From: a virus
Lineage: Duplodnaviria > Caudoviricetes
Length of the DNA: 64,000 nucleotides
Strand: one strand, 5' to 3'
IMG/VR virus record: IMGVR_UViG_3300014205_000185
Span: 53,994-117,993 of that record
The notes beneath the pieces are model-generated. The model was not told the DNA's origin. It saw only the letters and a program-made list of their open reading frames with translations, and did not search any database. Made by a program: the position numbers and the translations under genes. Below, piece after piece: positions 40,996 through 57,788 of the stretch (its first letter is position 1; every line of letters starts with the position of its first letter).

Positions 40996-41286
40996 ATGAC
41001 TACGAGGAGTCTGGGCCTGAACCTACGTGGCGACGACCCGCGGCACGGAACCGTCAACGGGTACAGCAATCTCAAGTGCCGCTGCTTCGTGTGCAAGCAG
41101 GCCTGGACCGAGTACAACCGCGAGCAGCGGCTGGTCCGCTTCCTCCAGCTGACGCCCGACGACCCGCGGCACGGTAGCCGCAGCACGTACCTGAACTACG
41201 GATGTCGATGCGGTCTCTGTCGGACGGCAGCCAACACCTACAACCAGACGATCCGGAAAGCGAGGAGAGGTGCAGGAAAACCCTGA
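40996..41286 (+). CDS. protein with two HG-x-Y-CRCxxC Zn-binding repeats
   Basis: DDPRHGTVNGY..KCRCFVC and DDPRHGSRSTY..GCRCGLC. Confidence 0.75.
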   Translation: MTTRSLGLNLRGDDPRHGTVNGYSNLKCRCFVCKQAWTEYNREQRLVRFLQLTPDDPRHGSRSTYLNYGCRCGLCRTAANTYNQTIRKARRGAGKP

Positions 41287-42007
41287 GATCAACGTTCTGC
41301 TGCAAGGCATCGTTGGCTCTACTGCCTACGGCCTCGCCGGACCCGACTCCGATGTGGACAGACTCGGCGTCTTCGCCACACCTCTCGACCAGATCCTGAG
41401 CCTTGACCCGCCGGCCGACAGTATCGTGACTACGAAGCCAGACGTCACGATGCACGAGGCACTCAAGATGTGTCGGCTGCTCCTCAAGGGCAACCCGTCG
41501 GTGACCGAGCTGCTCTGGCTGCCCGAGGAGCTGTACGAGGTGAAGACAGAGCTGGGCGAGCAGCTCATCGCCATCCGTTCTGCCTTCCTCTCGGCATCCC
41601 AGGTCCGGGCTCGCTACCTCGGCTATGCCCGTTCCCAGTTCCATCGGCTCACGAAGCACGGAGACGGGGACGAAACCTTGGACCCTCGTAAGCACGTAGC
41701 GAAGCACGCCCGGCACCTCCTCCGCCTACTTGATCAAGGTCTGGTGCTGTACCAGACCGGCGAAGTTCAGGTGAGACTGGCCAATCCCCAGCGGTACTTC
41801 GACTTCGGCGAGATGGTCGCCAGGCGTCCCTCCTCGGCTGAGGAGTGGCTACTGCGGGCCGAGGAGCAGTTCGACTCCGCCGTCTCCGCACTGCCGAGCG
41901 AGCCGAACAAGGAGCTGGTGGAGGACTGGCTCTGGTCGGTACGGCACTATGCACCGCCGATCAAGCTCTCAGTTCCCGGTATGTGGGAGAGCGACAGAAC
42001 TGAATAG
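41270..42007 (+). CDS. Pol-beta superfamily nucleotidyltransferase (YcgL/RlaP-like)
   Basis: GSTAYGLAGPDSDVDRLGVF, GNPSVTELLW, HLLRLL. Confidence 0.85.
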   Translation: MQENPEINVLLQGIVGSTAYGLAGPDSDVDRLGVFATPLDQILSLDPPADSIVTTKPDVTMHEALKMCRLLLKGNPSVTELLWLPEELYEVKTELGEQLIAIRSAFLSASQVRARYLGYARSQFHRLTKHGDGDETLDPRKHVAKHARHLLRLLDQGLVLYQTGEVQVRLANPQRYFDFGEMVARRPSSAEEWLLRAEEQFDSAVSALPSEPNKELVEDWLWSVRHYAPPIKLSVPGMWESDRTE

Positions 42008-42054
42008 CCCCTGGTCCGCCCGGCGTTTTGCCCATAGGGCACAAGTTTTGTTTA

Positions 42055-42068
42055 CCCCGATGTGGGGG
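42055..42068 (+). promoter_or_regulatory. palindromic operator-like motif copy 2
   Basis: CCCCGATGTGGGGG, exact reverse complement of the copy at 58338. Confidence 0.55.
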
Positions 42069-42096
42069 TCGGGCGAATCTGTGCTTCGATGGGATT

Positions 42097-43410
42097 ATGA
42101 CCATGAACAAGACCCCTGGTCGGCACGCCGCATACGAGCCGCCGGCCGAGGACAACGTCACGGATCAATCCTGGAAAGACCGGTGGCTGCGTAACTGGAC
42201 TCCGCGCGAGCGGGTCATGGCCGCAGTCATGGCTCTCCTGGCGCCAGTCGCCCTGCTCGCGGGCGGCGGGATCGCCTGGGCGGCACTGCCAACGCAGAAC
42301 GCCACTCTGGCTCAGATCGGCTGCCCACCAGGGGTACCGCTGATCATCGAGCCGGACACCATGCTGGCTCACTGTGGAACGGACCCGAGTCCGACCGCAA
42401 CGACCAGCCCGTCGTCCTCGCCGAGTGCAACGGCAACATCGCCGGCACCTAGCCCGAGCACGACGACACCGCCACCTAGTCCGACAACGACCTCACCCGC
42501 GCCTAGCCCGACGACGACGAGTCCGTCGCCCAGCACGTCGCCCAGTACTTCACCGAGCCCGAGTACGACATCTCCACCCGCCGGGCCGCTGACGAACTGC
42601 TTCGGCGACGTGAAGTCGGTGCTCAACCAGGCGCGGCTGGCCGCATGTGGCTATCCGAACGAGAGCAATACTGGCGTCCCTGATGGCGTCCAGCTTTTCC
42701 CGGCGGCCGGACTGACGATCAACCAAACCGGTATCTACGTCAACAGAAACGTCACCGGTTGCGTCGTGGTCAACACCCAAGCCGGCCAGGAAGTGACGAT
42801 CCGGAACTTCCTGATCAACGCCACCGGCTGTGGACAGGGTGGCATCCAGCACTGGGGCGCGGGCAAGCTGACGGTCGAGGACACGACCGTCTACTGCACC
42901 CGGGCGAGCGGCCATGGGTTCTGGGTACAGAACACGACCGCAGTGCGGATCCACACGTACGGCTGCGAGAACGGGTTCGAATTGAACGCGAACTCGACGG
43001 TCCGCGATTCGATGATCGGTGGCTCGGAGGTTGGTAACAGCTCCGCTCACGGTGATGACATCCAGAGTCAGGGCGGCAACGACGTCTTCGTGTTGCACAA
43101 CACCTTCGTCGGCCTCAACCCCATCACGTCGTCCATCATCAGCAACCCGGACAACAACCGGCGCTGGACGATCCGCGACAACTTTTTCGCCGCTGGGGCA
43201 TACACCCTGTACTGCCCTGAGAACGTCGGCAACACCTGGATCGTGACCGGCAACCGGTTCTTCCCATACAGGAACGCTGCCGGCCAGCGACTCTATGCAG
43301 ACCTGGGCGACCTGCGCGCACCCGCGTACGGGTACACCGACGGCTGCGGCGGGGTCGGCACCTGGACGGGCAACTACCGAGACGACACCCTTGCCTCGGT
43401 CTCCCGTTAG
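42097..43410 (+). CDS. exported protein with Pro/Ser/Thr linker and beta-helix-like domain
   Basis: N-terminal hydrophobic segment, long P/S/T linker, GYPNESNTGVP, HGDDIQ. Confidence 0.75.
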   Translation: MTMNKTPGRHAAYEPPAEDNVTDQSWKDRWLRNWTPRERVMAAVMALLAPVALLAGGGIAWAALPTQNATLAQIGCPPGVPLIIEPDTMLAHCGTDPSPTATTSPSSSPSATATSPAPSPSTTTPPPSPTTTSPAPSPTTTSPSPSTSPSTSPSPSTTSPPAGPLTNCFGDVKSVLNQARLAACGYPNESNTGVPDGVQLFPAAGLTINQTGIYVNRNVTGCVVVNTQAGQEVTIRNFLINATGCGQGGIQHWGAGKLTVEDTTVYCTRASGHGFWVQNTTAVRIHTYGCENGFELNANSTVRDSMIGGSEVGNSSAHGDDIQSQGGNDVFVLHNTFVGLNPITSSIISNPDNNRRWTIRDNFFAAGAYTLYCPENVGNTWIVTGNRFFPYRNAAGQRLYADLGDLRAPAYGYTDGCGGVGTWTGNYRDDTLASVSR

Positions 43411-43791: not shown

Positions 43792-43864
43792 TGGGGTGTA
43801 GCACAACTGGTCGTGCGTCGGTCTCCAAAACCGAAGGTTGCAGGTTCGAGCCCTGTCACCCCTG
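43792..43864 (+). tRNA. tRNA-Trp(CCA)
   Basis: cloverleaf; TCGGT-CTCCAAA-ACCGA. Confidence 0.9.
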
Positions 43865-43976
43865 CTTGGGTTCTGAGGAATCGGGACCTAGTTTCTTGAA
43901 AAGTCCACAGTGGAACAGCATGTGTTAAGACGCGGGGCCCCGACTCCTTCTTTCTTGGGGTCGGGCCTCCGCGCCT

Positions 43977-44051
43977 CGGGATGTAGCTCAGCTTGGTCAG
44001 AGTGTCTGGTTTGGGGCCAGAAAGCCGCAGGTTCGAATCCTGTCATCCCGA
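43977..44051 (+). tRNA. tRNA-Pro(TGG)
   Basis: TCTGG-TTTGGGG-CCAGA. Confidence 0.9.
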
Positions 44052-44059
44052 CGCAGCAA

Positions 44060-44132
44060 GGGCTCATAGCTCAATTGGTTGAGCACCTCTCTGGCAGGGA
44101 GGAGGTTTCGGGTTCAAATCCCGATGGGTCCA
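44060..44132 (+). tRNA. tRNA-Ala(GGC)
   Basis: CCTCT-CTGGCAG-GGAGG; G3:U70. Confidence 0.9.
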
Positions 44133-44184
44133 CGTCGAGGTGAGGAAACTCCGGGGCGAGTAACCCCGCCTCCCTCGGCTCCAT

Positions 44185-44257
44185 GGGGATATAGCTCAGC
44201 CGGTAGAGCGCTGTGTTCGCAACGCAGAGGCCCGCGGTTCGAATCCGCGTATCTCCA
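44185..44257 (+). tRNA. tRNA-Ala(CGC)
   Basis: CTGTG-TTCGCAA-CGCAG. Confidence 0.9.
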
Positions 44258-44263
44258 CCCCTT

Positions 44264-44336
44264 GCCCCCTTAGCTGAGATGGTTCAAGCGTTGGTCTGAA
44301 AAACCTGAGACGGCGGTTCGAGTCCGCCAGGGGGCA
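44264..44336 (+). tRNA. tRNA-Phe(GAA)
   Basis: loop CTGAAAA; GTTCGAGTC T arm. Confidence 0.85.
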
Positions 44337-44349
44337 CGCAGCAAAACCT

Positions 44350-44421
44350 GCACCGTTGGAGGAATGGGAACTCGTCTGCCCCTCAAGCAGAAGAATGCCG
44401 GTTCGACCCCGGCACGGTGTA
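44350..44421 (+). tRNA. tRNA-Glu(CTC)
   Basis: TCTGC-CCCTCAA-GCAGA. Confidence 0.8.
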
Positions 44422-44569
44422 CGTCCTCATCCCGGGCATGCCGCAGTCGACAGCGGTAAGGGATGTTGTGGGACCCGACGAATGCTCTCCCTTATTGAGG
44501 AGGGGGTGTGTATGCGGCAGTCGCCCTCCGCCACAGCCGAGTAGCGCTCCAGGATCCGGGTCCCATGAT

Positions 44570-44641
44570 GCGGGTGTAGCTCAATGGTCCGAGCATCTGG
44601 CTTCCAACCAGAGGATCAGGGTTCGATTCCCTGTACCCGTT
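44570..44641 (+). tRNA. tRNA-Gly(TCC)
   Basis: TCTGG-CTTCCAA-CCAGA. Confidence 0.9.
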
Positions 44642-44650
44642 CTCGTTCGT

Positions 44651-44723
44651 TGGCAGCTGGTCTAATTGGTAGGACGCCGGGCTTTGGTCTCGGATGGTAG
44701 AAGTTCGAGTCTTCTGCTGCCAG
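44651..44723 (+). tRNA. tRNA-Gln(TTG)
   Basis: CCGGG-CTTTGGT-CTCGG. Confidence 0.85.
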
Positions 44724-44742
44724 CTCGACCCTGGAGGGAAGC

Positions 44743-45012
44743 ATGATCAATTGTTTTAGGTGCGATCAGGCCATGAAGCCAGCCTTTCCGAGTGAGTTGG
44801 ACTTACCGCAGCCGGCTCATGGAGTCATGTTTACAGCTCATGGCAACTTCGGAAGTCGGGTCTTCGATCCGATATCCAGCTCCCCGTCGCTGCTCATTCT
44901 GATCTGCGACAACTGCCTGTTGGCGAACAAGGAGCAGGTCATGACCGCTCGTCTCAAGCAGGAGACGAGGCACGAATACGGGCCCTGGGATCCCCAGGCG
45001 GCCTACAACTAG
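44743..45012 (+). CDS. hypothetical Zn-ribbon protein
   Basis: GGAGGG RBS; CFRC...GNFGSRVFD...ICDNC. Confidence 0.75.
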   Translation: MINCFRCDQAMKPAFPSELDLPQPAHGVMFTAHGNFGSRVFDPISSSPSLLILICDNCLLANKEQVMTARLKQETRHEYGPWDPQAAYN

Positions 45013-45086
45013 CCGTTCTATCCCAATCGGTAGAGGAAGCGGACTCAAAAACCGTCAACGTCACAGTTCGAATCTGTGGAGCGGCA
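45012..45086 (+). tRNA. tRNA-Leu(CAA), short variable arm
   Basis: loop CTCAAAA. Confidence 0.85.
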
Positions 45087-45093
45087 CATACAT

Positions 45094-45166
45094 GCCCTCA
45101 AAGCTCACGAGGTGGAGCGCCGCCATGGTAAGGCGGAGGCTGTCGGTTCGAATCCGACTGGGGGCT
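45094..45166 (+). tRNA. tRNA-Thr(GGT)
   Basis: CCGCC-ATGGTAA-GGCGG. Confidence 0.85.
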
Positions 45167-45241
45167 CGCGCGGTAGTTTAATGAGGTTAAAACCCCTGGC
45201 TGATAACCAGAGAGAAACGGGTTCGAGGCCCGTCGGCGCAA
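45167..45241 (+). tRNA. tRNA-Ile(GAT)-like, degenerate acceptor stem
   Basis: loop CTGATAA; C1:A72 and G6:G67 mismatches. Confidence 0.6.
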
Positions 45242-45246
45242 CGCAT

Positions 45247-45320
45247 GCGGATGTAGCTCAGTTGGTCAGAGTGCAACCTTGCCAAGGTTGAGGTCGCCGG
45301 TTCGACCCCGGTCATCCGCT
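45247..45320 (+). tRNA. tRNA-Gly(GCC)
   Basis: CAACC-TTGCCAA-GGTTG. Confidence 0.92.
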
Positions 45321-45362
45321 CGTTATATGGAAGCTCGCTCGCCTCACAAATAGGATGTAGGA

Positions 45363-45569
45363 ATGTTGGACACCGCGCAGCCCGAGTTAATCCGATCGTG
45401 GCACAAGCCACGACGGTGCGAATCTTCAGTTTGTGTGGAAGTGACCTTCCCGGAAGAGAAGGAGATCGTCGGCGTCCGAACGTCGTCGATGCAGCTTCCT
45501 ATCGTTTTCGACTATCACGAGTGGCGCGAGTTCATCGCTGGCGTCAAGCGCGGAGAGTACGACATCTGA
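45363..45569 (+). CDS. DUF397-like protein
   Basis: WHK..RC....CVEV, VGVR.S, EWREFIAGVKRGEYD. Confidence 0.8.
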   Translation: MLDTAQPELIRSWHKPRRCESSVCVEVTFPEEKEIVGVRTSSMQLPIVFDYHEWREFIAGVKRGEYDI

Positions 45570-45617
45570 TCGTCGAACCGCGCTGCACCCTGCACCTAGC
45601 AAAGGAAGGTGATCCCA

Positions 45618-46058
45618 GTGCAGGCGGTTCAGGTTCTCAATGCTGATCTCGGATACCTACACCGGGTCAGCCTTCGGCACGCGATCCGGATGCTCTGCCG
45701 CAACGTGGCAGAGGTCCATGAAGCGGAGCCTGACATATGGCTCGGGCCATTCCCGATGCCAAAGGTCGTCCGTCTGGTGCGCTACGTCGTCACCAGGTGG
45801 CGTTACAGCGAAGGTCCGGCCTGGTCGCGGGCGGGCGTCATCCGTCGGGACGTCGGGGTCTGTGGCTACTGTGGCCGACCCGGTAACACCGTCGACCACG
45901 TCCTGCCGACTTCCCGTGGCGGCAAGAACACGTGGGCCAATACGGTTTGCAGCTGCGATAGCTGCAATCAGAGCAAGGGCGACATGACGCCGAGCGAGGC
46001 ACACATGAGCCTGCGGATCAAGCCCACATCGCCTAGCTGGGCATCGATGGCGCACTAG
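45618..46058 (+). CDS. HNH endonuclease
   Basis: VLNAD, RD..CGYCG, TVDHVLPTSRGG.NTWAN.V..C..CN..K. Confidence 0.9.
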   Translation: MQAVQVLNADLGYLHRVSLRHAIRMLCRNVAEVHEAEPDIWLGPFPMPKVVRLVRYVVTRWRYSEGPAWSRAGVIRRDVGVCGYCGRPGNTVDHVLPTSRGGKNTWANTVCSCDSCNQSKGDMTPSEAHMSLRIKPTSPSWASMAH

Positions 46059-46080
46059 TTCCTGGAGGAGGAGCGCAGCC

Positions 46081-46389
46081 ATGAAGTACGAGGAGGCGCT
46101 CCAACTCTGGGGTGCGAAGAAGTTGAGCGAGGTGTACCCACGTCTCGCAATCGACTCAGCTACGGTCCACGTCGGCATGCAGTTCGACAAGGGCTACGTC
46201 TGCTGCGGCGGGCGAGACCCGGACTGCTACTGCTCCCGCGCTGAGTCGCCATCGGCAAGCGTTCGGATTACGGCGTGGACACGGGACATGTCCCGTCAGG
46301 CGTCGGTCGACATTGACGCCGAGGACTTCGACTTCGCAACGGTACTCAGCGAAATCATCGCCGTCAGCGATGGGGCACTAACTGCATAG
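46081..46389 (+). CDS. hypothetical protein
   Basis: GGAGGAGG RBS, 102 aa. Confidence 0.75.
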   Translation: MKYEEALQLWGAKKLSEVYPRLAIDSATVHVGMQFDKGYVCCGGRDPDCYCSRAESPSASVRITAWTRDMSRQASVDIDAEDFDFATVLSEIIAVSDGALTA

Positions 46390-46410
46390 AGCCCAGGAGA
46401 GAGGCTCAAG

Positions 46411-46614
46411 ATGAACTGCGATACATACTGCTCCCACGGCGGTGTGTGCGTGTTATCCCAGGGGCACGAAGGATTGCACGACTCGAACTACTGCACGTGG
46501 GCCGACGAGGAAAGCATCAGTCGAGATGAGGCCAATGAGAAGTTGGCCGACGTAAGTCCGCTTGGCCGAGCGCTGTCGCTTCTCTGGGAGGCCGCAGTTC
46601 CCAGAGAAGATTGA
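46411..46614 (+). CDS. hypothetical Cys/His-rich protein
   Basis: C.L..GHEGLH motif; RBS. Confidence 0.65.
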   Translation: MNCDTYCSHGGVCVLSQGHEGLHDSNYCTWADEESISRDEANEKLADVSPLGRALSLLWEAAVPRED

Positions 46615-46675
46615 TGGCGCCGAACCAGACTTCTGGGCCCCGCTTACTGTGAGGGGGGCGGGGCCCAGAACTCAT

Positions 46676-46746
46676 TCCCGGATCGTCTAACGGTAGGACG
46701 CCTGGCTCTGAACCAGGCAATTGAGGTTCGAATCCTTGTCCGGGAG
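46676..46746 (+). tRNA. tRNA-Gln(CTG)
   Basis: CCTGG-CTCTGAA-CCAGG. Confidence 0.9.
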
Positions 46747-46833
46747 CGTAGTTAGGGGCGCGCAAGCGCTGGGCTCGGGAGTGCACCCCAATGGGCCCGG
46801 GAACTGAGTTCGCGACAAGGGGACCCCGTTTTC

Positions 46834-46909
46834 GTCTGAGTGGGCAAATTGGCAAAGCCGCCAGCTTGAGGGGCTGGAGATGCTGCGGGTTCGACTCCCG
46901 CCTTGGACA
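46834..46909 (+). tRNA. tRNA-Leu(GAG)
   Basis: CCAGC-TTGAGGG-GCTGG. Confidence 0.85.
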
Positions 46910-47007
46910 CGCAGTTGCTACAGAACCTGCCTGTACTGGCGGTGGTTCCAGGTAAACCAATAATCTTCGTGACGGCCCTGGACTTTGCGTCCGCCCAACT
47001 GCACTAT

Positions 47008-47081
47008 GCCGACTTAGCTCAGTTGGTCAGAGCGTCCGCCTTGTAAGCGGAGGGTCGGGAGTTCGATCCTCCCAGTCGGCT
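47008..47081 (+). tRNA. tRNA-Thr(TGT)
   Basis: TCCGC-CTTGTAA-GCGGA. Confidence 0.9.
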
Positions 47082-47086
47082 CGCTT

Positions 47087-47159
47087 GCCCTTGTAGCTCA
47101 GCTGGTAGAGCGTCGCACTCGTAATGCGAAGGTACCCGGTTCGAGTCCGGGCTTGGGCT
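47087..47159 (+). tRNA. tRNA-Thr(CGT)
   Basis: TCGCA-CTCGTAA-TGCGA. Confidence 0.9.
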
Positions 47160-47252
47160 CCGTACACAGTGGACATGGAGGTGATCACGATGACCGCTAA
47201 CCGGCGCTAGTCCAGGCGAAAGACGCCTGGCGGCCGAGGACGAGGTCGTTAC

Positions 47253-47648
47253 ATGTCCAGAACCGACGTGCACGCACCGTACTGGGTCAAGCAACTCGAT
47301 CCAGCATGGCGTGATCACTTCCAGGAGGTTCACCATCACCAAGATGGTGTCTGCACCCTCCAGGACTACTTCGAGTCGCTCCGTCGCAATGGGAGAAGCT
47401 GGGGAGACTGCTTCATCCAGCCCGTCTCTCGGGGACGCAACATCCATTGTGGATGCTGGATGTGCAGTGAAGGCTACAGCCGCTCGCTCCGGCGTCGCAC
47501 TGAACGGCACCAGATAAAGCAAGCGCTCCGCTCAGGTCAGTGGGAAGATCCTACGCCTCAGGTGCGGGAGCGATACTGGATCAGCAATAGGCCGTCCACC
47601 TGGGTCGGCTATCAGCGACAGAAGGCGTTGACTGAGACCGAGGAATAG
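47253..47648 (+). CDS. hypothetical basic His/Cys protein
   Basis: MSRTDVHAPYWV...CGCWMC...RRRTER. Confidence 0.7.
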   Translation: MSRTDVHAPYWVKQLDPAWRDHFQEVHHHQDGVCTLQDYFESLRRNGRSWGDCFIQPVSRGRNIHCGCWMCSEGYSRSLRRRTERHQIKQALRSGQWEDPTPQVRERYWISNRPSTWVGYQRQKALTETEE

Positions 47649-47681
47649 AAAACTAGGCCTACGTCAAAGGCGTAGGCATTC

Positions 47682-47754
47682 GGGCCCTTAGCTCATTTGG
47701 TAGAGCATCTCTTTTGCAAGGAGAAGGCGGCCGGTTCAAATCCGGCAGGGTCCA
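47682..47754 (+). tRNA. tRNA-Ala(TGC)
   Basis: TCTCT-TTTGCAA-GGAGA. Confidence 0.9.
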
Positions 47755-47756
47755 CC

Positions 47757-47882
47757 CCGGAGGGCAGTAATGGAGGATAAGCCGCCGCGCAACTCGACGG
47801 GGTTGGCGCTCTAGCCTGGGGTCCGGACCTTGGGGCTGGCGCGAAAGCGGAGTTGTGGGTTCGAGTCCCACCCGGATACCAA
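47757..47882 (+). ncRNA. tRNA-like RNA with anticodon loop replaced by a multi-hairpin insert
   Basis: T arm GTGGG-TTCGAGT-CCCAC, 3' ACCA, D-like GGC..GCC, CCGC/GCGG stem closing a ~60-nt insert. Confidence 0.5.
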
Positions 47883-47956
47883 GCCGACGCACGCTGATGG
47901 CTCAAGCGGCCTGACCTAGGATCAGGTGTTTGTGAGTTCGAATCTCACCGTCGGTA
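47883..47956 (+). tRNA. tRNA-Leu(TAG)
   Basis: CCTGA-CCTAGGA-TCAGG. Confidence 0.8.
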
Positions 47957-47968
47957 CGTTATGACAGT

Positions 47969-48049
47969 GCCCGAGTGATGAAATGGCAGCCATGCTGGCC
48001 TTAAAAGCCGGTGCCGAGAGGCGTGCGGGTTCGAATCCCGTCTTGGGTA
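47969..48049 (+). tRNA. tRNA-Leu(TAA)
   Basis: loop CTTAAAA, long variable arm. Confidence 0.9.
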
Positions 48050-48059
48050 CGATAGACAA

Positions 48060-48139
48060 GGGGTCGGACGGTTTCGTCGGGTAGCTAGAACCGCACGTCG
48101 GAAGTTGCCTGCACCCGGGTTCGATTCCCGGCGGCTCCA
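48060..48139 (+). ncRNA. mini-tmRNA (tRNA-like domain only)
   Basis: 5' GGGGTCGGACGGTTTCG and 3' CCGGGTTCGATTCCCGGCGGCTCCA match tmRNA termini; G3:U70; only a short helix between them. Confidence 0.7.
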
Positions 48140-48151
48140 CGCAAGAAGCAA

Positions 48152-48227
48152 GGTCTGTTAGCTTAGCCTGGTTTAAAGCGCCACCCTGTCACGGTGGAGA
48201 TCACGGGTTCGAATCCCGTACAGATCG
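48152..48227 (+). tRNA. tRNA-Asp(GTC)
   Basis: CCACC-CTGTCAC-GGTGG. Confidence 0.92.
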
Positions 48228-48302
48228 CGGACCTAGAGGATAGCGAGATCGTATGCTCGCGTATCGCTAGGACAAGGCGGACCCTTCGGTGGTCCGCCCC
48301 AA

Positions 48303-48391
48303 GGAGATGTGGCAGAGTCCGGTTTATCGCGCAGTCCTGCTAAGACTGTGACCCCTAAAAAGGTCCCCGAGTTCAAATCTCGGCATCTCCG
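48303..48391 (+). tRNA. tRNA-Ser(GCT)
   Basis: CAGTC-CTGCTAA-GACTG, long variable arm. Confidence 0.9.
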
Positions 48392-48446
48392 CGCAGCTCG
48401 CTGGCCGTTCGATTCGGCCATAAACTTGGCGTTCTAGCGAGCCCTT

Positions 48447-48521
48447 GGGAACGTAACTCAGTCCGGTTAGAGTTCCGATCTGATACGTCGGCGGTCAGAG
48501 GTTCAAATCCTCTCGTTCCCA
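48447..48521 (+). tRNA. tRNA-Ile(GAT)
   Basis: CCGAT-CTGATAC-GTCGG. Confidence 0.88.
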
Positions 48522-48539
48522 CGCAGCAAGAGTTCGTAT

Positions 48540-48613
48540 GTCCCAGTAGCTCAATTGGACAGAGCGCTAGCCTACGAAGCTAGAGGTTGCAGGTTCGAGT
48601 CCTGCTTGGGATA
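48540..48613 (+). tRNA. tRNA-Arg(ACG)
   Basis: CTAGC-CTACGAA-GCTAG. Confidence 0.92.
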
Positions 48614-48618
48614 CGTAG

Positions 48619-48693
48619 CGGGATATAGCTCAGCTTGGTTAGAGCGCCGGTCTGGGGGACCGGAGGCCGTCGGTTCAAATCCGGCTCTCCCGA
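48619..48693 (+). tRNA. tRNA-Pro(GGG)
   Basis: CCGGT-CTGGGGG-ACCGG. Confidence 0.9.
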
Positions 48694-48698
48694 CGCAT

Positions 48699-48782
48699 GG
48701 TAGGCATCCGGCTGGATGAGGGGCCGCGTTCGAAGTGCGGTAGCGGGTCAAACCGTTGTGGGTTCGAGTCCTACGCCTACCG
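48699..48782 (+). tRNA. tRNA-Ser(CGA)
   Basis: CCGCG-TTCGAAG-TGCGG, long variable arm. Confidence 0.8.
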
Positions 48783-48789
48783 CGTACCT

Positions 48790-48876
48790 GGAAGATGACC
48801 GGTTGGTCGAGGGAGCACGGTTGGAAGTCGTGTACGTCGCGTGAGCGGCGCCGGAGTTCGAATCTCCGATCTTCCG
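48790..48876 (+). tRNA. tRNA-Ser(GGA)
   Basis: CACGG-TTGGAAG-TCGTG, long variable arm. Confidence 0.8.
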
Positions 48877-48990
48877 CGTGATCAAGAGATGGTTCAATCG
48901 ATGCTGGCCACAGTATCGGCTATGCGTTCGTCCCTGGTGCCTGCGCGGGCAGGCTTACGACCACCGCTGCTACAGGCACCAGGAATTGCC

Positions 48991-49812
48991 CTAGTCGGTT
49001 AACCGTCCGGCCTCCTCGTCGACTACGGCGTCGGCGACCGCGGCGATGGCGGCGGGCGTTAGGTCCACTGGCCCCGCACTGGAACCTCCGTCAGAGTCGC
49101 TGGCGAAGTAGCCAAAGAAGGTCGGGTCGACATCGAATACCGTTACCCATGGCTCGTTCGGTAGAGAGATCGAGCCGACAACTGTGGAGTAGATCGGCTT
49201 GAAGACATCGCCGCCTGGAGCGTGGCTGGCGTTGGTCTGTCGCCCCGACCACCACCAACCCTGACCGGCCATGGCGGCGGCGTCTCCGACGACAGCAATC
49301 TGCCCGCCCAGCGGGACTCGGTAATACACGCCGTTCATGCGGCAGAAGATGGTTGGCTGCACGTCGTCCTCCTCGATCGGGGGTAAGGGTGGAACCGGCG
49401 GTGTTGGCGTAATGGCAACATATCGATAGGCCTTGTAGCCAGGAGTAATGCGCTTGATCTCTCGTCGGACGGGGCCATTTACCCCGCCAGCCTGCTCCCA
49501 GATGTGGAGACCATTTGTAGTCCAGCCGTCGAAGAGCTGGATATGACCATCGTCGCCCGCGGTGCCTGGGCCGCAGAGACCGATAGCATCGCCCGGCTGT
49601 AGGTCGCTGACAGGAATTTCCTTCATAAAGCCCCGGGTAACAAGCGTGACCGTGTTTTCCCCGGGCGGTGGCGTCTTCCAGCACATGGAGACATAGCCGG
49701 AGCAGTCCTGGCGATATCCGTCCGGCTGGTGAACGAGAGCCTGGCTATATGGCACAGACCTCGGAGGCCAAATAGTGGCGGCCCTGACTAAGACTTCAGA
49801 ACGAGCGACCAT
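48991..49812 (-). CDS. endolysin-like NlpC/P60 peptidoglycan hydrolase
   Basis: YRQDCSGYVSMCW, LQPGDAI, GHIQLF; Pro linker; C-terminal IAAVADAVVDE. Confidence 0.8.
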   Translation of the reverse strand: MVARSEVLVRAATIWPPRSVPYSQALVHQPDGYRQDCSGYVSMCWKTPPPGENTVTLVTRGFMKEIPVSDLQPGDAIGLCGPGTAGDDGHIQLFDGWTTNGLHIWEQAGGVNGPVRREIKRITPGYKAYRYVAITPTPPVPPLPPIEEDDVQPTIFCRMNGVYYRVPLGGQIAVVGDAAAMAGQGWWWSGRQTNASHAPGGDVFKPIYSTVVGSISLPNEPWVTVFDVDPTFFGYFASDSDGGSSAGPVDLTPAAIAAVADAVVDEEAGRLTD

Positions 49813-49888
49813 TCAAGACCTCCTTGGCGGGCGCTAATGGTCAGACGGTACCGCATTAGCTGACAGTTTCGAGGCACTTGATAGACAT

Positions 49889-49975
49889 GGAGACGCCAGC
49901 CGATAGGCCGCCGGCCGCGAGTTTGAAGCTCGTTAGGGGTTAACGCCCGTGAGAGTTCGAGTCTCTCCGTCTCCG
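49889..49975 (+). tRNA. tRNA-Ser(TGA)
   Basis: GCGAG-TTTGAAG-CTCGT, long variable arm. Confidence 0.8.
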
Positions 49976-49987
49976 CCCAGAGGGCTC

Positions 49988-50017
49988 TTGACCGAACCTG
50001 AAGGTCCGGGGTACTCT
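49988..50017 (+). promoter_or_regulatory. putative promoter
   Basis: TTGACC-18 nt-TACTCT upstream of 50053. Confidence 0.5.
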
Positions 50018-50052
50018 GTACCCGGACATCCCCCTACAGGATCGGAACAGTC

Positions 50053-50526
50053 ATGAACACGAAGATCAAGGAATGGCTCGCGACCGCCGGATGGGTCATC
50101 GCCATCCTGCTCATCGTCCTGGTCGGCACGCTCGCATCCCGCAACCTCCAGGTCACGCCTTCCGGCTTCAAGGCCATCGCACAACAGACGTTCAAGGAAG
50201 TCCAGGTTCGCTTCGTCGTCAAGGTCGAGGAGCCGACTACCTGGATGGAGGTTCGGCTGTACGAGCTGGGCGAAAGCCCAAGCTCACTGGAGGAGACCCG
50301 GTCGACGCCGTTCATGACGGCGCGGGACTGGTCGTACACCGTGACCATGCGCAACGACATGTATACGGTCATCTGGCCGCTTCTCTACACCGGCATCGCT
50401 GGGCAGTCGGCCGGCGGCCGAGGGGTGTGCTGGGTCGAGGTTGACGGAGTCGAGGTCCCGGGCAGTCGGACCCAGATACCGTCCGGCAGCATCGTCCTGG
50501 CAAAGTGCGAGTACCGGGTCGACTGA
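50053..50526 (+). CDS. membrane-anchored MmpS-like protein
   Basis: N-terminal TM; C-terminal CWVEVDG...AKCEY disulfide pattern. Confidence 0.65.
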   Translation: MNTKIKEWLATAGWVIAILLIVLVGTLASRNLQVTPSGFKAIAQQTFKEVQVRFVVKVEEPTTWMEVRLYELGESPSSLEETRSTPFMTARDWSYTVTMRNDMYTVIWPLLYTGIAGQSAGGRGVCWVEVDGVEVPGSRTQIPSGSIVLAKCEYRVD

Positions 50527-50557
50527 CAGGAAGTCGCTCGCCATTGGCGAGCGCAAT

Positions 50558-50628
50558 GGGCCGTTAGCTGAGTGGTTTAGCTCCGGGCTCTTAACTCGGA
50601 GAGGAAGGTTCGATTCCTTCACGGCCTA
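50558..50628 (+). tRNA. tRNA-Lys(CTT)
   Basis: CCGGG-CTCTTAA-CTCGG. Confidence 0.88.
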
Positions 50629-50655
50629 CGCAACAAACTCCCTGGAGGAGGAAAC

Positions 50656-50742
50656 ATGTGGTGTCTAGGGCTGCTCTGCCTGGTCCTAGTGCTCATCGTC
50701 GTCGGAGCGTTCAGCAGACCTGACGACAGAGGGCCCCTGTAG
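50656..50742 (+). CDS. 28-aa membrane micropeptide
   Basis: GGAGGAGG RBS; MWCLGLLCLVLVLIVVGAFSRPDDRGPL. Confidence 0.5.
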   Translation: MWCLGLLCLVLVLIVVGAFSRPDDRGPL

Positions 50743-50806
50743 CTCAACGGATAGAGCCGCGGGCTTCTACCCCGCGAGTGTGCGGGTTCGAGTCCTGCCA
50801 GGGGCG
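50733..50806 (+). tRNA. tRNA-Arg(TCT)
   Basis: GCGGG-CTTCTAC-CCCGC. Confidence 0.9.
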
Positions 50807-50807
50807 C

Positions 50808-50879
50808 GTGCCGTGAGCATGGATGGTTATGCTCCGAACTTTTAATTCGGAGAGCAGGGTTCGAGTCCCTGGCGGCGCA
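50808..50879 (+). tRNA. tRNA-Lys(TTT)
   Basis: CCGAA-CTTTTAA-TTCGG. Confidence 0.85.
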
Positions 50880-50916
50880 CGACACAGGCCGCTATGCTTG
50901 CACGGCAACACATCGA

Positions 50917-50993
50917 CGCGGAGTAGAGCAGCTCGGCAGCTCGCTAGGCTCATAACCTAGAGGTCATCGGTTCGAATCCGATCTCCGCTACCA
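50917..50993 (+). tRNA. tRNA-Met(CAT), initiator-like
   Basis: loop CTCATAA; unpaired C1:U72; encoded CCA. Confidence 0.9.
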
Positions 50994-51057
50994 TGCTGGT
51001 CCCGGCACGAGGAGTGTCGGGCGTAAGCGCGGCATACACTCCGCGGCCCGCAGCAGT

Positions 51058-51129
51058 GCCCGTATAGCTCAGTGGCGGAGCATCTCTATGACACGGAGAA
51101 GGCCCCTGGTTCAAGTCCAGGTGCGGGTA
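51058..51129 (+). tRNA. tRNA-Val(GAC)
   Basis: TCTCT-ATGACAC-GGAGA. Confidence 0.88.
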
Positions 51130-51140
51130 CGTCAGTCGAT

Positions 51141-51215
51141 GGGGTCGTAGACTAATTTGGATAGGTCTCCGCTCTTTCAAAGCGGAAGGTGCCGGATCGT
51201 GCCCGGTCGACCCTA
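51141..51215 (+). tRNA. tRNA-Glu(TTC), atypical T loop
   Basis: CCGCT-CTTTCAA-AGCGG; T loop ATCGTGC. Confidence 0.75.
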
Positions 51216-51228
51216 CGCACAACTTCAT

Positions 51229-51302
51229 TCCCCGGTAGCTCAGCTGGTAGATGCATCCGCCTGTTAAGCGGAAGGTCCCTAGTTCGAATCTAGGTCGGGG
51301 AG
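51229..51302 (+). tRNA. tRNA-Asn(GTT)
   Basis: TCCGC-CTGTTAA-GCGGA. Confidence 0.88.
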
Positions 51303-51315
51303 CGCGGGCGTCAAT

Positions 51316-51388
51316 GCACCGAACCATCCGGTAGATGGATCCGATCCTTATAAGTTCGGAGGGGCGGGTTCGACTCCCCCTCGGTGTA
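51316..51388 (+). tRNA. atypical tRNA with TAT anticodon (Ile?)
   Basis: GCACCGA/TCGGTGT acceptor; CCGATC-CTTATAA-GTTCGG. Confidence 0.65.
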
Positions 51389-51397
51389 CATAATCAA

Positions 51398-51470
51398 GCA
51401 GATGTGGCCAAGCGGCTAAGGCCCCTCTTTCACACAGAGGAAATCAAAGGTTCGAGTCCTTTCATCTGCA
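51398..51470 (+). tRNA. tRNA-Val(CAC)
   Basis: CCTCT-TTCACAC-AGAGG. Confidence 0.88.
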
Positions 51471-51493
51471 CGTCGAGCCAAGGAGGCTCCACG

Positions 51494-51733
51494 ATGGACA
51501 CTGGCTGGAACACTGTCAGCACCGAGACTCTGGAGTTGTTGCGTAACAACTTGATCCAGGGCCTGAAGAAGGTGGCCGCGCACATCGCGGCCGGGACGTT
51601 CGAGGAGATCCCGCCTGGGAAGTCCTCGCCTCCGTCCCAGTCGGGCCAGCTAACCCTGGCCTTGCTCAACGAAATAGAAGCCGAACTGGCCGACCGGATT
51701 GCACATGTGAACACGGGTGACCAGGTAATGTGA
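51494..51733 (+). CDS. hypothetical protein
   Basis: AGGAGG RBS before MDTGWNTVST. Confidence 0.7.
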   Translation: MDTGWNTVSTETLELLRNNLIQGLKKVAAHIAAGTFEEIPPGKSSPPSQSGQLTLALLNEIEAELADRIAHVNTGDQVM

Positions 51734-51737
51734 ACCC

Positions 51738-52157
51738 ATGCCGATGGCGACCAAGGAAGAGCAACGCAACTATCAGCGCGAGTGGCGCAGTCAAAGACGC
51801 TTGGAGTGGATCCAAGCACACGGACCCTGTGTCCACTGTGGGGCATCGGAAGAGTTAGAAGTCGATCATATCGACCATAAGGAAAAGTTGCTAAATCCTT
51901 CTTACTTATGGTCTTTATCTAGAACAAATCCAAAAAGAATCGCGGAACTGGCTAAATGCCAGGTGCTATGCAAGAGATGTCATGACGCCAAGACCCTTGA
52001 ACAGCTAAAGACCTACAGGGGATATTGCCGACAGGGGCATCAGTTGGTTCAAGAGAACGTCTACCTCCATCCTGGATCTAGACGTAGGGAATGTCTTATC
52101 TGTAAAAAGACTCGCCGCAGGGCGAATGTCCATGGTGGCCGTAGCTCAATTGGTTAG
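51738..52157 (+). CDS. HNH endonuclease with C-terminal Zn finger
   Basis: CVHCG..LEVDHID...ELAKCQVLCKRCHDAKT; CRQGH..RREC.IC; lower GC than flanks. Confidence 0.85.
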   Translation: MPMATKEEQRNYQREWRSQRRLEWIQAHGPCVHCGASEELEVDHIDHKEKLLNPSYLWSLSRTNPKRIAELAKCQVLCKRCHDAKTLEQLKTYRGYCRQGHQLVQENVYLHPGSRRRECLICKKTRRRANVHGGRSSIG

Positions 52158-52208
52158 AGTGCTGGGCTGTGAACCCGGAGGTTGCGTGTTCGAACCACGT
52201 CGGTCACC
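52134..52208 (+). tRNA. tRNA-His(GTG)
   Basis: CTGGG-CTGTGAA-CCCGG; G-1:C73. Confidence 0.9.
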
Positions 52209-52252
52209 CTCCACATTGCACCTCCCTACAACAGCACATGAAATGGACCCCG

Positions 52253-52705
52253 ATGTTCTTCAATCGCCGTCTAGCCGTCTTCATGGCGGCAACCTGCATG
52301 GCCGTCTCGGTGGCCGGCTGTGAGCCGATTCAGCAGGGCGCGTCCAAGCCGGGCACACCCGAGGTCGTCTTCGAGATAAGGTCCAGCCCGCCGGGGCTGC
52401 TCGCGAGCATCCACATCGACGCCACGTACCCGGACGGGAGCCCCGTCCTCAACGCCGATACCGGCATGCCGTACCCGATGGACGTAGGCCGACGGACGCC
52501 GTACAAGCACACGTTCGCCTATGAGCCCGGCGCCTACGCGGTACTCAAGGTCGTGGCCATCGTCGTCGGCGAGCCGGGCGATGTCGTCTCCTGTTCGATC
52601 ACGGACGACGGATTCACGATCGAACGACCGCAACCGAAGCCGGTCGCCGAGATCCCCCCCGGAGTGATGGGGGCAGAGGTGGTCTGCATCTACACCACCA
52701 AGTAG
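52253..52705 (+). CDS. MmpS-like lipoprotein
   Basis: lipobox VAGC; TPY, SCSITDDG...VVCIY. Confidence 0.7.
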   Translation: MFFNRRLAVFMAATCMAVSVAGCEPIQQGASKPGTPEVVFEIRSSPPGLLASIHIDATYPDGSPVLNADTGMPYPMDVGRRTPYKHTFAYEPGAYAVLKVVAIVVGEPGDVVSCSITDDGFTIERPQPKPVAEIPPGVMGAEVVCIYTTK

Positions 52706-52799
52706 GCGTCCCTAGTCGGGGTCACATCCGACGCACCGCGGGACCGTCGGGGCGAAGCTCACCTGGCACCTTGTGGTGACGAGCTGAGCCCCGACGTAC

Positions 52800-52883
52800 G
52801 GGAGAGTTGGGCAATTGGTTTGGCCCAGCGGACTGTAAATCCGCCCCAGAAATGGCATGCAGGTTCGAGTCCTGTCTCTCCCA
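52800..52883 (+). tRNA. tRNA-Tyr(GTA)
   Basis: GCGGA-CTGTAAA-TCCGC, long variable arm. Confidence 0.9.
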
Positions 52884-52884
52884 C

Positions 52885-52958
52885 GTCATGTCAGGTAGCT
52901 CAACTGGAAGAGCACGCGACGGCGAAGATGGTCGGTTCGAGTCCGATCCTGACATGAC
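52885..52958 (+). ncRNA. anticodon-less tRNA mimic
   Basis: 11-bp GTCATGTCAGG/CCTGACATGAC stem, canonical D and T arms, anticodon arm only CGC-GACG-GCG. Confidence 0.6.
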
Positions 52959-52967
52959 CTCATACAT

Positions 52968-53044
52968 ATCCCTGTAGCTCAATTGGACAGAGCATCGGCC
53001 TCCGAAGCCGAAGGTTAGCGGTTCGAATCCGCTTAGGGATACCA
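52968..53044 (+). tRNA. tRNA-Arg(CCG)
   Basis: TCGGC-CTCCGAA-GCCGA; encoded CCA. Confidence 0.92.
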
Positions 53045-53065
53045 CTATCCACAAAGGAGGGAACC

Positions 53066-53668
53066 ATGGGAACGTGGTTCACGGCCGATACACACTTCGG
53101 CCATGCTCGCATCATCGAGCTGTGTAACCGGCCGTTCAAAACGGTCGAGGAGATGAACGAGAAGCTCGTCGAGAACTGGAACGAACGAGTCAGCCCCAAT
53201 GACGAGGTCTTCATATTGGGGGACCTGGCACTGGGAAAGCTCGACGAGAGCTTGACCTGGGTCGGGCTGCTCAACGGCACCAAGCACCTGGTGCCGGGCA
53301 ATCATGACCGCGTCTGGGAGGGGCACCCGAAGAAGGGCAAGCCCGTCCGGCCGGAGGACATCGTCAGGTACGAGGCGGCTGGGCTCAACATCATGCCCGG
53401 CACCATGAACTTCATCCCCGAGGGAGAATCTTTCCGGGATCCATGGATCTTGTGTCATTTCCCGGACGTGGGCGATAGCCACGATGCGGACCGGTACGAC
53501 AGCTGGCGGCCGAAGCCCAAGGTGGGTCAGGCCCTGATCCACGGTCACGTGCACGAAAAGTGGCTCACGAACGGCCCCAGAATCAACGTGGGCGTTGATG
53601 TATGGGACTACCGCCCCGTACATCAGGACGAGGTCGCCGTCCTCGCTACCGTGGCCCTGAGGGGCTAG
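53066..53668 (+). CDS. calcineurin-like metallophosphoesterase
   Basis: DTHFGH, LGD, GNHD, CHFP, HGHVH, INVGVD. Confidence 0.9.
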   Translation: MGTWFTADTHFGHARIIELCNRPFKTVEEMNEKLVENWNERVSPNDEVFILGDLALGKLDESLTWVGLLNGTKHLVPGNHDRVWEGHPKKGKPVRPEDIVRYEAAGLNIMPGTMNFIPEGESFRDPWILCHFPDVGDSHDADRYDSWRPKPKVGQALIHGHVHEKWLTNGPRINVGVDVWDYRPVHQDEVAVLATVALRG

Positions 53669-54643
53669 TTAGCCTGTCACGGTTAGAAGTGACTCGCTGT
53701 AGATGGTGGCGGCCGATCCTTGGATGTTGACACCGACCCAATACTGTCCGGCCGGAACCTGGGTCGATACCTGAGCATGTAGCTCGGTCGGAGTTTGCGA
53801 GCCGGTAATCGTCAATCGGTACGTGTCGTTTGATGGCCCCAGAAGATAGACCTTGTTCGGGGAGTTGAATCCGTCGCCGCTGATCGTGAGCGAGGTTCCG
53901 CGGGTTGCCGTGGTGGGACTGAAACTGGTTACGTGGATGGCAGTATCGACCGCATCCACGGTGCAACTGCACACAGTCCACGCATAGCCAGGAGCATGCA
54001 GGGCTGGTATCCAGGTTCCCACAGAGAGCGGAGGCGTGGAGACTGCCACTTCTCCCGGGTTGTGTGGAGTGAAGGCCACTGCCTCAAGGATGGCGCCCGT
54101 AGCCTGGTCGGTGAATTGAATGCCATCAACCGCATTGATCTCGAAGCTACCCGACAGAATCAGAACCTCCACGGAATGAGCGGAGATGGACGTCGGGCTC
54201 ACTCCCGTCAACGCAGGAGCGGTGCCGGGATCTGGGTTCGGGGTCGTGGGGTCGTAGCACGAGATGATTGGCACCACGTAGACCTCAGACGTAAGCCCGG
54301 TGGTTTGATCCGTGAGGACGACGAGGAATGTGTGTCCGTCGGAGCCGTAGTTGTGTTCGTAATCGTCTCCATCCACAACCCCAGTAGTCGTGGTCCCGTC
54401 GCCCCAATCAATGGTTGCCGTATTGGGCGTAGATACGTGCACGCCGAGCGTCTGCCCGTCGTCGGCATGAAGGTGCAGGATGGAGGGGCCGCCATCTAGA
54501 GTGAGAGACGCGACGTCTCCTGGGCCAGCGCTAGTGGCCTGCGTCCGGCCAACGTGATAGGCACTCAGGATGTTGGGCCCTTCGTCAATAAGCCGAAGCG
54601 CACCTTTAGTGGCCATGATGCTGCCCGGGATGACGATGGACAT
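53669..54643 (-). CDS. PKD/IPT-TIG domain protein, possibly virion-associated
   Basis: IDWGDGT PKD motif; two IPT-like repeats (LTGVSPT, VTSFSPT...LTISGDGF). Confidence 0.7.
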   Translation of the reverse strand: MSIVIPGSIMATKGALRLIDEGPNILSAYHVGRTQATSAGPGDVASLTLDGGPSILHLHADDGQTLGVHVSTPNTATIDWGDGTTTTGVVDGDDYEHNYGSDGHTFLVVLTDQTTGLTSEVYVVPIISCYDPTTPNPDPGTAPALTGVSPTSISAHSVEVLILSGSFEINAVDGIQFTDQATGAILEAVAFTPHNPGEVAVSTPPLSVGTWIPALHAPGYAWTVCSCTVDAVDTAIHVTSFSPTTATRGTSLTISGDGFNSPNKVYLLGPSNDTYRLTITGSQTPTELHAQVSTQVPAGQYWVGVNIQGSAATIYSESLLTVTG

Positions 54644-54867
54644 ATTGCGACCATTGCTGTTGGTTTCAATGAGATGCGCGTCCTCTCTGGCCCAGGCCAG
54701 GACTCGGCCGGCAATGTGTCTCACGAACTGTGGGTACTCGGCGATGATCCTGAAATATCCACAGCCCATGACGCACCTCTGTCCCGTATTGCACACTTCC
54801 CCCTGTAGCATCCCACCGTCGGTGACCAATAGCTAACCCTTGCGGAAGTCGACAATCTGATTAGCAA

Positions 54868-54941
54868 GCCGATGTGCCTGAGTGGTCCAAAGGGGGCGCC
54901 TGCAAAGCGCCTATTCGCCGGTTCGAATCCGGCCTTCGGCT
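54868..54941 (+). tRNA. tRNA-Cys(GCA)
   Basis: GGCGC-CTGCAAA-GCGCC. Confidence 0.9.
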
Positions 54942-54969
54942 CAAGAAGTGCTGTTCTGCTGTGGGCCTT

Positions 54970-55037
54970 GGCGAGGGATCAGGGATCAACGGTTACTCAT
55001 AATGACCGTCGGCCGGGATCAATACCCGGACTCGCTA
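54970..55037 (+). tRNA. compact atypical tRNA with CAT anticodon
   Basis: ACGGTTA-CTCATAA-TGACCGT 7-bp stem; tiny D arm GATC-AGG-GATC; T loop ATCAATA. Confidence 0.55.
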
Positions 55038-55038
55038 C

Positions 55039-55608: not shown

Positions 55609-55634
55609 CCCTGACATGGGGGTGCAGCTAGCAT
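55605..55634 (+). promoter_or_regulatory. promoter with operator copy 4
   Basis: TTGACC-18 nt-TAGCAT; CCCTGACATGGGGG; ATG 6 nt after -10. Confidence 0.6.
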
Positions 55635-55640
55635 CACAGG

Positions 55641-55829
55641 ATGGGATCTCGCGGATACGACCCAGATCTGATGCTGCTCAAAGGATCGTTGGCCTTCTGG
55701 ACAGTCGTCGTCACCACTGCCGCTCGCGCGAAGGCGAACGCGACATCCCCGTCAGGCGTCTTCGACCCTGACCAGTACGCAACGGACTACGAGACTGCCG
55801 CTGACCACCTGGAGGCGGTACATCCATGA
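55641..55829 (+). CDS. hypothetical protein
   Basis: Apparently leaderless start; ATGA overlap with next gene. Confidence 0.55.
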   Translation: MGSRGYDPDLMLLKGSLAFWTVVVTTAARAKANATSPSGVFDPDQYATDYETAADHLEAVHP

Positions 55830-57766: not shown

Positions 57767-57788
57767 CCCCCTCATGGGGGTATAGATT
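57759..57788 (+). promoter_or_regulatory. promoter with operator copy 5
   Basis: TTGACT-18 nt-TAGATT; CCCCCTCATGGGGG; ATG 7 nt after -10. Confidence 0.7.

Follow-up and report, generated by a model that had tools for sequence, protein, structure and literature searches.

[quoted passage not shown] Judged from its sequence and that of its relatives, the locus is most likely a functional gene, encoding a tag-less tmRNA of the TLD-only kind carried by Mycobacterium phage DS6A. A TLD-only phage tmRNA has already been described in DS6A, and such RNAs are common in phages. The window copy itself brings little novelty, being a divergent member of the family in a tRNA-rich phage that also encodes a GGQ-domain protein.

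A tmRNA reduced to its tRNA-like domain

All the elements read in the initial annotation are present in the letters: the acceptor stem with the G3:U70 pair, the D loop, the T arm and a 9-bp helix 2a (Table 1). The same holds for the total length of 80 nt and for the lack of a tag reading frame and of pseudoknots. The RNA has the 7-bp acceptor stem, G3:U70, A73 and a T loop of the GGUUCGAnUCC type that characterize a tmRNA TLD, together with a D-loop analogue of the ..GGnUUCGAC type with one departure, as it reads UUCGUC instead of the usual UUCGAC, and no D stem. The T arm is preceded by GCAC, whereas GGAC is found in most tmRNAs and in most family members. CCA is not encoded, and the trailer is CGC. 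The mRNA-like domain (resume codon, tag reading frame and stop codon) is absent, helix 2a enclosing just 16 nt, and pseudoknots PK1 to PK4 are absent as well, there being no sequence to form them. In place of pseudoknot 1, the tag frame and pseudoknots 2 to 4 stands a cap. Its length of 16 nt had been given correctly, but it is not a plain loop: it consists of an A-rich internal loop and a 3-bp hairpin, the hairpin being conserved and covarying in the family, and in the Rfam alignment the 3-bp stem falls on the next helix-2 segment of the tmRNA model. The RNA is the TLD plus helix 2a plus the first turn beyond it, closed where pseudoknot 1 would begin.

Table 1. Coordinates of the mini-tmRNA, its parts and selected neighbours in the window (RNA position i is window coordinate 48059 + i)
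Feature	Window position	RNA position	Strand	Remarks
Acceptor stem, 5' strand, GGGGTCG	48060-48066	1-7	+	Holds G3 of the G3:U70 alanine identity pair
tmRNA-type D-loop analogue, GACGGTTTCGT	48067-48077	8-18	+	Aligns to Rfam consensus GAucuGGaUUCGAC
Helix 2a, 5' strand, CGGGTAGCT	48078-48086	19-27	+	9 bp with 48103-48111
Cap, 16 nt	48087-48102	28-43	+	AGAA internal loop, hairpin CCG-CACGT-CGG, then A
Helix 2a, 3' strand, AGTTGCCTG	48103-48111	44-52	+	Pairs with the 5' strand
Linker CAC	48112-48114		+	Reads GCAC with the preceding G
T arm, CCGGG-TTCGATT-CCCGG	48115-48131	56-72	+	From the Rfam alignment
Acceptor stem, 3' strand, CGGCTCC, and discriminator A	48132-48139	73-79 and A80	+	A80 is A73 in tRNA numbering
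tRNA-Leu(taa)	47969-48050		+	Upstream neighbour, 9 nt before the mini-tmRNA
tRNA-Asp(gtc)	48152-48228		+	Downstream neighbour, 12 nt after the mini-tmRNA
RlaP-family "RNA repair pathway" nucleotidyltransferase	41270-42007		+	PF10127, E 1.7e-25; heads the tRNA island
Calcineurin-like metallophosphoesterase	53066-53668		+	Within the tRNA island

A 4-bp D-like stem (GACG/CGTC) is possible in the window copy alone. As its relatives cannot form this pairing, the unpaired, tmRNA-type D loop is the supported reading. The folding energy of the single window sequence is unremarkable (z-score of -0.72), which is usual for tRNA-like RNAs, and the support for the structure rests on covariation, not on folding energy.

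Comparison with the tmRNA covariance models, as proposed in the initial annotation, gave a match to Rfam RF00023 that spans model positions 1 to 374 except for 294 deleted in the middle, which supports the view of a TLD without an mRNA-like domain. The score was 48.4 bits (E 4.6e-16) in the window, and also 48.4 bits in a search of the whole genome, compared to a curated gathering threshold of 47 bits. The same stretch scored 39.8 bits in a short-region run with other filter settings, so the match is borderline, at the threshold. A family model (R1), built from 60 RNAs of the same architecture with the window copy included and DS6A left out, scores the RNA at 67.7 bits, the window sequence being one of its 60 training rows. 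ARAGORN called 42 tRNAs in the window, and the mini-tmRNA is not among them.

Two other identities were considered and rejected. An ordinary tRNA-Ala does not fit, as there is no anticodon arm and ARAGORN makes no call. A two-piece (permuted) tmRNA would need a coding piece elsewhere, which the initial annotation had left as an option, and RF04321 found no such piece across the 118-kb genome. Over the window, the permuted models gave one sub-threshold partial match, which runs into the next tRNA. No full-length tmRNA was found in the whole genome, where RF00023 recovered the mini-tmRNA locus and weak tRNA-Ala look-alikes.

Homologues of the RNA and their covariation

For the homologue search we used a pattern that specified the D-loop analogue and the T loop and left the acceptor stem free. 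A scan of IMG/VR gave at least 113 stretches. About 67 of the 98 distinct IMG/VR pattern matches listed are mini-tmRNAs, and the others are ordinary tRNAs or unrelated sequence. BLAST with the window RNA gave matches of the same length in the Streptomyces phages GiJojo, LuckySocke and Shaeky. Altogether there are at least 67 distinct RNAs with the full architecture, namely, at least 63 from IMG/VR, those of the three Streptomyces phages and the window copy. These at least 67 sequences are 62 to 92 nt long, mostly 75 to 82 nt. The closest relative of the window copy among the matches listed is only about 79% identical.

In a MAFFT alignment, compensatory changes occur at 8 of the 11 predicted pairs. 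In a model-based alignment of 56 distinct rows, 91.3% of the cells pair, compared to 65.8% in shuffles; changes on both sides of a pair occur in 306 cells versus 108 in shuffles and affect 14 of the 21 pairs. The covariation score is 0.60, against 0.13 for shuffles and at most 0.11 for controls in which the partner was slid; pairing drops to 52% or less when the partner is moved by one to three columns. An alignment of this type is fitted to the model and therefore biased toward the structure, but the slid controls and the MAFFT alignment are free of that bias and agree with it. For helix 2a, six pairs were modelled; 96% of their cells pair and five of the six show changes on both sides. In the T stem, all cells (100%) pair and such changes are found at three of five pairs. 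The 3-bp hairpin of the cap (helix 3) is also conserved and covarying across the family. The A-rich 5' internal loop and two C:G pairs of this hairpin are nearly invariant, and the capping loops are mostly of stable tetraloop types (CACG, GCAA, CATG and CTTG), which suggests a structural cap. GGTTTCG is invariant in one alignment (A2), but it is part of the search pattern. The structure is under purifying selection.

These data bear directly on whether the locus is a non-functional remnant, a phage or host tmRNA that decayed after an internal deletion or the leftover of an attP site in ssrA. Many phages do carry the 3' part of tmRNA as attachment-site homology, in the form of short matches to the T arm and acceptor, and the Rfam score of the window copy is barely above the threshold. 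We nevertheless regard such an origin as very improbable. The acceptor stem is intact on both strands, as are the D-loop analogue and helix 2a; the tRNAs on both sides are tightly spaced, at 9 and 12 nt; and the phage looks like a lytic type, with no integrase among the subset of ORFs that was scanned. Compensatory changes in every helix across at least 67 homologues of like size mean that the RNA is not a deletion remnant, for which the initial annotation had expected no homologues of the same length.

In most members, UUCG-A-C and G-G-AC flank helix 2a and are placed for tandem G/A mismatches. Three members (the window copy, L105 and L119) have U with C at this mismatch site, and two have C with U. 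Members of this U/C type score 42.8 to 48.4 bits with RF00023, compared to 55 to 81 bits for most of the family, and the correlated change in D loop and linker accounts for the lower Rfam score of the subgroup. The change may be an isosteric replacement.

The published precedent is the entry "Mycobacterium phage DS6A (TLD only)" in the list of Hudson, Lau and Williams 2014 (PMC4131195), which is tmID 11587 of the tmRNA Website. The initial annotation had named only mitochondrial tag-less forms and had missed this phage precedent. The DS6A element, at positions 28478 to 28560 of its record, scores 43.2 bits with RF00023 and 51.1 bits with R1, which was built without it. It shares with the window RNA a phage-encoded length of about 80 nt without a tag frame, G3:U70, A73, the tmRNA-type D loop and the T arm, as well as a helix 2a whose cap is made of an A-rich internal loop and a CCGCACG(N)CGG hairpin (AAAACCGCACGCGG-type, in a CCGCACGCGG design). 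Like the window copy, it has GCAC and not GGAC before the T arm. The two RNAs are only about 70% identical over the aligned length, and the D-loop analogue is GGTGGTCGAC in DS6A and GGTTTCGTC in the window copy. They also differ in setting: DS6A is a temperate phage of 60 kb in which the RNA stands alone between gp33 and the DNA polymerase III gene, whereas the window copy lies inside an array of 42 tRNA genes in a phage of 118 kb. Given the alignment with the shared hairpin motif and the R1 score of the DS6A element, the window RNA is a member of the DS6A kind.

The RNAs of GiJojo, LuckySocke and Shaeky have the same architecture and length as the window RNA, score 57 to 59 bits with RF00023 and are also located in tRNA arrays. 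Their identity to the window RNA is about 74%, and the capsid protein of the window phage is not close to theirs. The position within the array differs as well, the gene being invariably flanked by tRNA-Val(tac) and tRNA-Ser(gct) in GiJojo-type phages and by tRNA-Leu(taa) and tRNA-Asp(gtc) here. In GiJojo, gene 44, a "hypothetical protein" CDS (L004:3004-3246), overlaps the mini-tmRNA (L004:3006-3086, RF00023 57.4 bits) and was probably annotated in error. The mini-tmRNAs of LuckySocke and Shaeky are unannotated.

Full-length tmRNAs, including those of phages Wildcat and Annadreamy, have the same TLD and helix 2a and adjoin tRNA genes. Unlike the mini-tmRNA, they have PK1 to PK4, a resume codon, a tag frame and a stop codon, with about 290 nt inside helix 2a instead of 16. 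Direct descent from phage full-length tmRNAs was considered, and we draw no conclusion on origin: the Wildcat and Annadreamy RNAs share the TLD and are without the A-rich loop and hairpin sequence.

The window phage and the other carriers

The source record is 117,993 bp long and rated 100% complete, and the window is its last 64 kb. DNA metagenome runs, from landfill and groundwater, are the only ones listed that contain the stretch. The terminase, portal, major head and tape-measure genes are on the minus strand, and the major capsid protein shares at most 44% identity with its counterparts in cultured actinophages, for example those of Actinoplanes, Microbacterium, Rhodococcus, Gordonia and Mycobacterium. 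This similarity points to an actinobacterium as the host. Two features of the minus strand may be mentioned here. A 1131-aa large terminase (60495-63890, -) has its PHROG matches split into residues 66 to 458 and 825 to 1124 with an unrelated middle, which is consistent with an intein or another insertion, and the structural module contains, downstream of the portal and head-maturation genes, a single ORF of 4309 aa (22131-35060, -).

The plus strand carries an island from about 41 to 60 kb with 42 tRNA genes that cover all 20 amino acids. The tRNA genes lie on one strand (43792-59602, +) and form a set that is unusually complete for a phage of 118 kb. No promoter-like site and no plus-strand terminator-like site was found between 46600 and 50100, and together with the tightly spaced tRNA neighbours this weakly suggests that the mini-tmRNA may be cotranscribed with the array and processed as tRNAs are. 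The nucleotidyltransferase at the head of the island (Table 1), a 460-aa ORF without a family match in the same region near its start (41270-43410, +) and the metallophosphoesterase resemble a gene set of the tRNA-repair type. A gap of 126 nt (47757-47882, +) separates tRNA-Ala(tgc) from tRNA-Leu(tag) and contains a T-arm-like sequence, GGGTTCGAGTCCCAC; R1 matches it partially at 47855-47871 and neither ARAGORN nor Rfam makes a call. It may be an unusual tRNA-like element or one in decay. A gene for a 257-aa protein (58393-59166, +) that matches DUF7873 with an E value of 4.7e-93 lies shortly before the last tRNA-Leu(caa) (59528-59602).

No SmpB gene was found in the phage genome, and the phage has no detectable Pth gene. 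With no SmpB, no full-length tmRNA and no permuted coding piece, the phage would be dependent on host factors. Outside the window, the genome encodes a stand-alone RF-1/GGQ-domain protein of 129 aa (G000:C1:15442-15831, or L129:1456-1845, +), which matches PF00472 at 50 bits and phrog_3122 at an E value of 1.7e-34 and has weak similarity to PrfH and ArfB. From these matches, it could be a stop-codon-independent peptidyl-tRNA hydrolase. We considered it as a conserved partner of the mini-tmRNA and rejected this, as the gene is absent from 53 other carriers, that is, from all four cultured mini-tmRNA phages checked and from all 49 IMG/VR carrier records, 10 of which are at least 90% complete.

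The array setting of the window copy is not general in the family, as 16 of 67 members have a tRNA within 2 kb and 51 do not. CCA is encoded in 14 of the 67, and ARAGORN misses 65. In the 49 carrier records, the mini form is the only tmRNA-like match, and in 43 of them it passes the Rfam cut-off. The carriers include temperate phages (DS6A and Shaeky) and large tRNA-rich phages; GiJojo, LuckySocke and DS6A also carry RNA ligases. The same pattern, applied to one genome per bacterial species, gave 120 stretches, and among the first 80, which were scored with R1, there were one strong match and three weak ones. On this count the family appears to be essentially viral. The strong match is a 68-nt RNA of 49.8 bits on a contig of a Candidatus Saccharibacteria MAG (L184:8-75, +), which is a bacterial tmRNA without a CDS or else a copy in a prophage.

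What the RNA may do in the infected cell

We lean, at somewhat better than even chances, towards a role in which the mini-tmRNA competes with the host tmRNA for SmpB and so lowers trans-translation. The RNA would be transcribed with the phage tRNA array, excised by the tRNA-processing enzymes of the host and provided with CCA. It would then take the fold of a tRNA's upper half, extended by helix 2a, bind host SmpB and be charged with alanine by the host AlaRS by way of G3:U70 and A73. In this form it could compete with the full-length tmRNA of the host for SmpB, and probably also for EF-Tu and for the empty A site of stalled ribosomes, and as a consequence trans-translation and ssrA tagging would fall during infection. 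We infer every one of these steps, from expression and processing through SmpB binding and charging to the host effect. The initial annotation had put forward both a decoy of this kind and the addition of alanine without a tag, and the decoy is how the literature reads the DS6A-type RNA (PMC4131195, PMC11915505). In PMC4131195, with reference to Mao et al. 2009, tmRNA in E. coli is said to be inhibited by "a similar molecule", possibly through titration of SmpB, whereas in the 2025 tmRNA database paper (PMC11915505), citing an earlier test, it was the DS6A form itself that was expressed in E. coli. The tested RNA thus differs between the two citing papers, and in both the host is E. coli, not an actinobacterium. 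That an RNA of this design can bind SmpB is known from an engineered Thermus thermophilus TLD fragment (5' 25 nt and 3' 34 nt joined by UUCG), which binds SmpB in crystals (PMC3985003, PDB 2CZJ). Its design is that of the phage RNAs, with the TLD, the beginning of helix 2 and a stable tetraloop to close it. It is artificial, however, and helix 2a is longer in the natural family, which also has the conserved A-rich internal loop. Against the decoy stands the fact that the window copy departs from the near-universal GGAC (it has GCAC) and UUCGAC (it has UUCGUC).

G1:C72, G2:C71, G3:U70 and A73 are invariant in all 68 members (DS6A included), while four to five pair types occur at pairs 4 to 6 and the acceptor stem comes in 24 distinct versions. 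A change of U to C, which would give a more stable G:C at 3:70, is never seen in the 68 members. The alanine identity elements are under purifying selection. Because the acceptor was outside the search pattern and G3:U70 and A73 are nevertheless fixed, charging by AlaRS is likely to matter. The absolute conservation of G3:U70 would be unexpected if the RNA simply titrated SmpB, whether or not it is chargeable, and it points to a need for charging and, probably, to action on the ribosome. Such a need blurs the line between a decoy and a tag-less form of rescue.

In such a rescue, the alanine-charged mini-tmRNA would, with host SmpB and EF-Tu, enter ribosomes stalled on broken mRNAs and accept the nascent chain. 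The outcome would be the addition of one alanine and no degradation tag, after which drop-off or a hydrolase would free the peptidyl-RNA and the ribosomes. This overlaps with the decoy model, the difference being whether recycling is productive or not. We consider this main rival rather unlikely, even if the strict G3:U70 and A73 in an otherwise freely varying acceptor stem argue for the importance of charging. Also in its favour, jakobid mitochondria have kept CDS-less tmRNAs alongside SmpB, and there are plastid forms of about 65 bp in Mallomonadaceae (PMC11915505). These organellar forms, retained with SmpB, are natural tmRNAs reduced to the TLD, as the phage RNA is, but they descend vertically from the ssrA of the endosymbiont, whereas the phage family is a separate viral lineage. 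The stand-alone 129-aa GGQ protein of the window phage could hydrolyse the peptidyl-RNA, but it is not a conserved partner, since the 4 cultured and 49 IMG/VR carriers do not have it, and the phage has no Pth gene. The one experiment cited is reported in PMC4131195 as inhibition and not as rescue. A more far-reaching proposal, to which we give little credence, is that the charged RNA and the GGQ hydrolase form a two-part, tag-free rescue system that would replace host trans-translation during infection, the RNA taking over the nascent chain and the GGQ protein releasing it; more broadly, the family would act on the ribosome and not as a passive SmpB sponge.

The RNA might also be a decoy for another target, serving as bait or shield for defence proteins or nucleases, such as RNase R, restriction systems with SmpB-like domains or toxins that target tRNAs. 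SmpB-like domains do occur in the CoCoNuT defence systems (PMC11090510), and fragments of tmRNA and tRNA act in an anti-CRISPR complex (PMC11662646). The island of the window phage holds the RlaP-family nucleotidyltransferase and the metallophosphoesterase, and GiJojo, LuckySocke and DS6A have their RNA ligases. This context of tRNAs and RNA repair is not general, however, as 51 of 67 members have no tRNA within 2 kb, and no specific defence partner is known. The features that are conserved are exactly those of the TLD that AlaRS and SmpB use. A role of this kind seems improbable to us, and competition for SmpB remains the reading that we prefer.

Trans-translation is the main ribosome-rescue pathway of bacteria and a drug target. 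A compact natural phage RNA directed against it would be useful as a tool and as a lead, and would mean that manipulation of ribosome rescue is routine among phages. DS6A, the one published case, gives too modest an impression of these RNAs: there are at least 63 distinct examples in IMG/VR, almost all invisible to ARAGORN, and even in cultured Streptomyces phages the gene has gone unannotated or lies under a probably spurious CDS.
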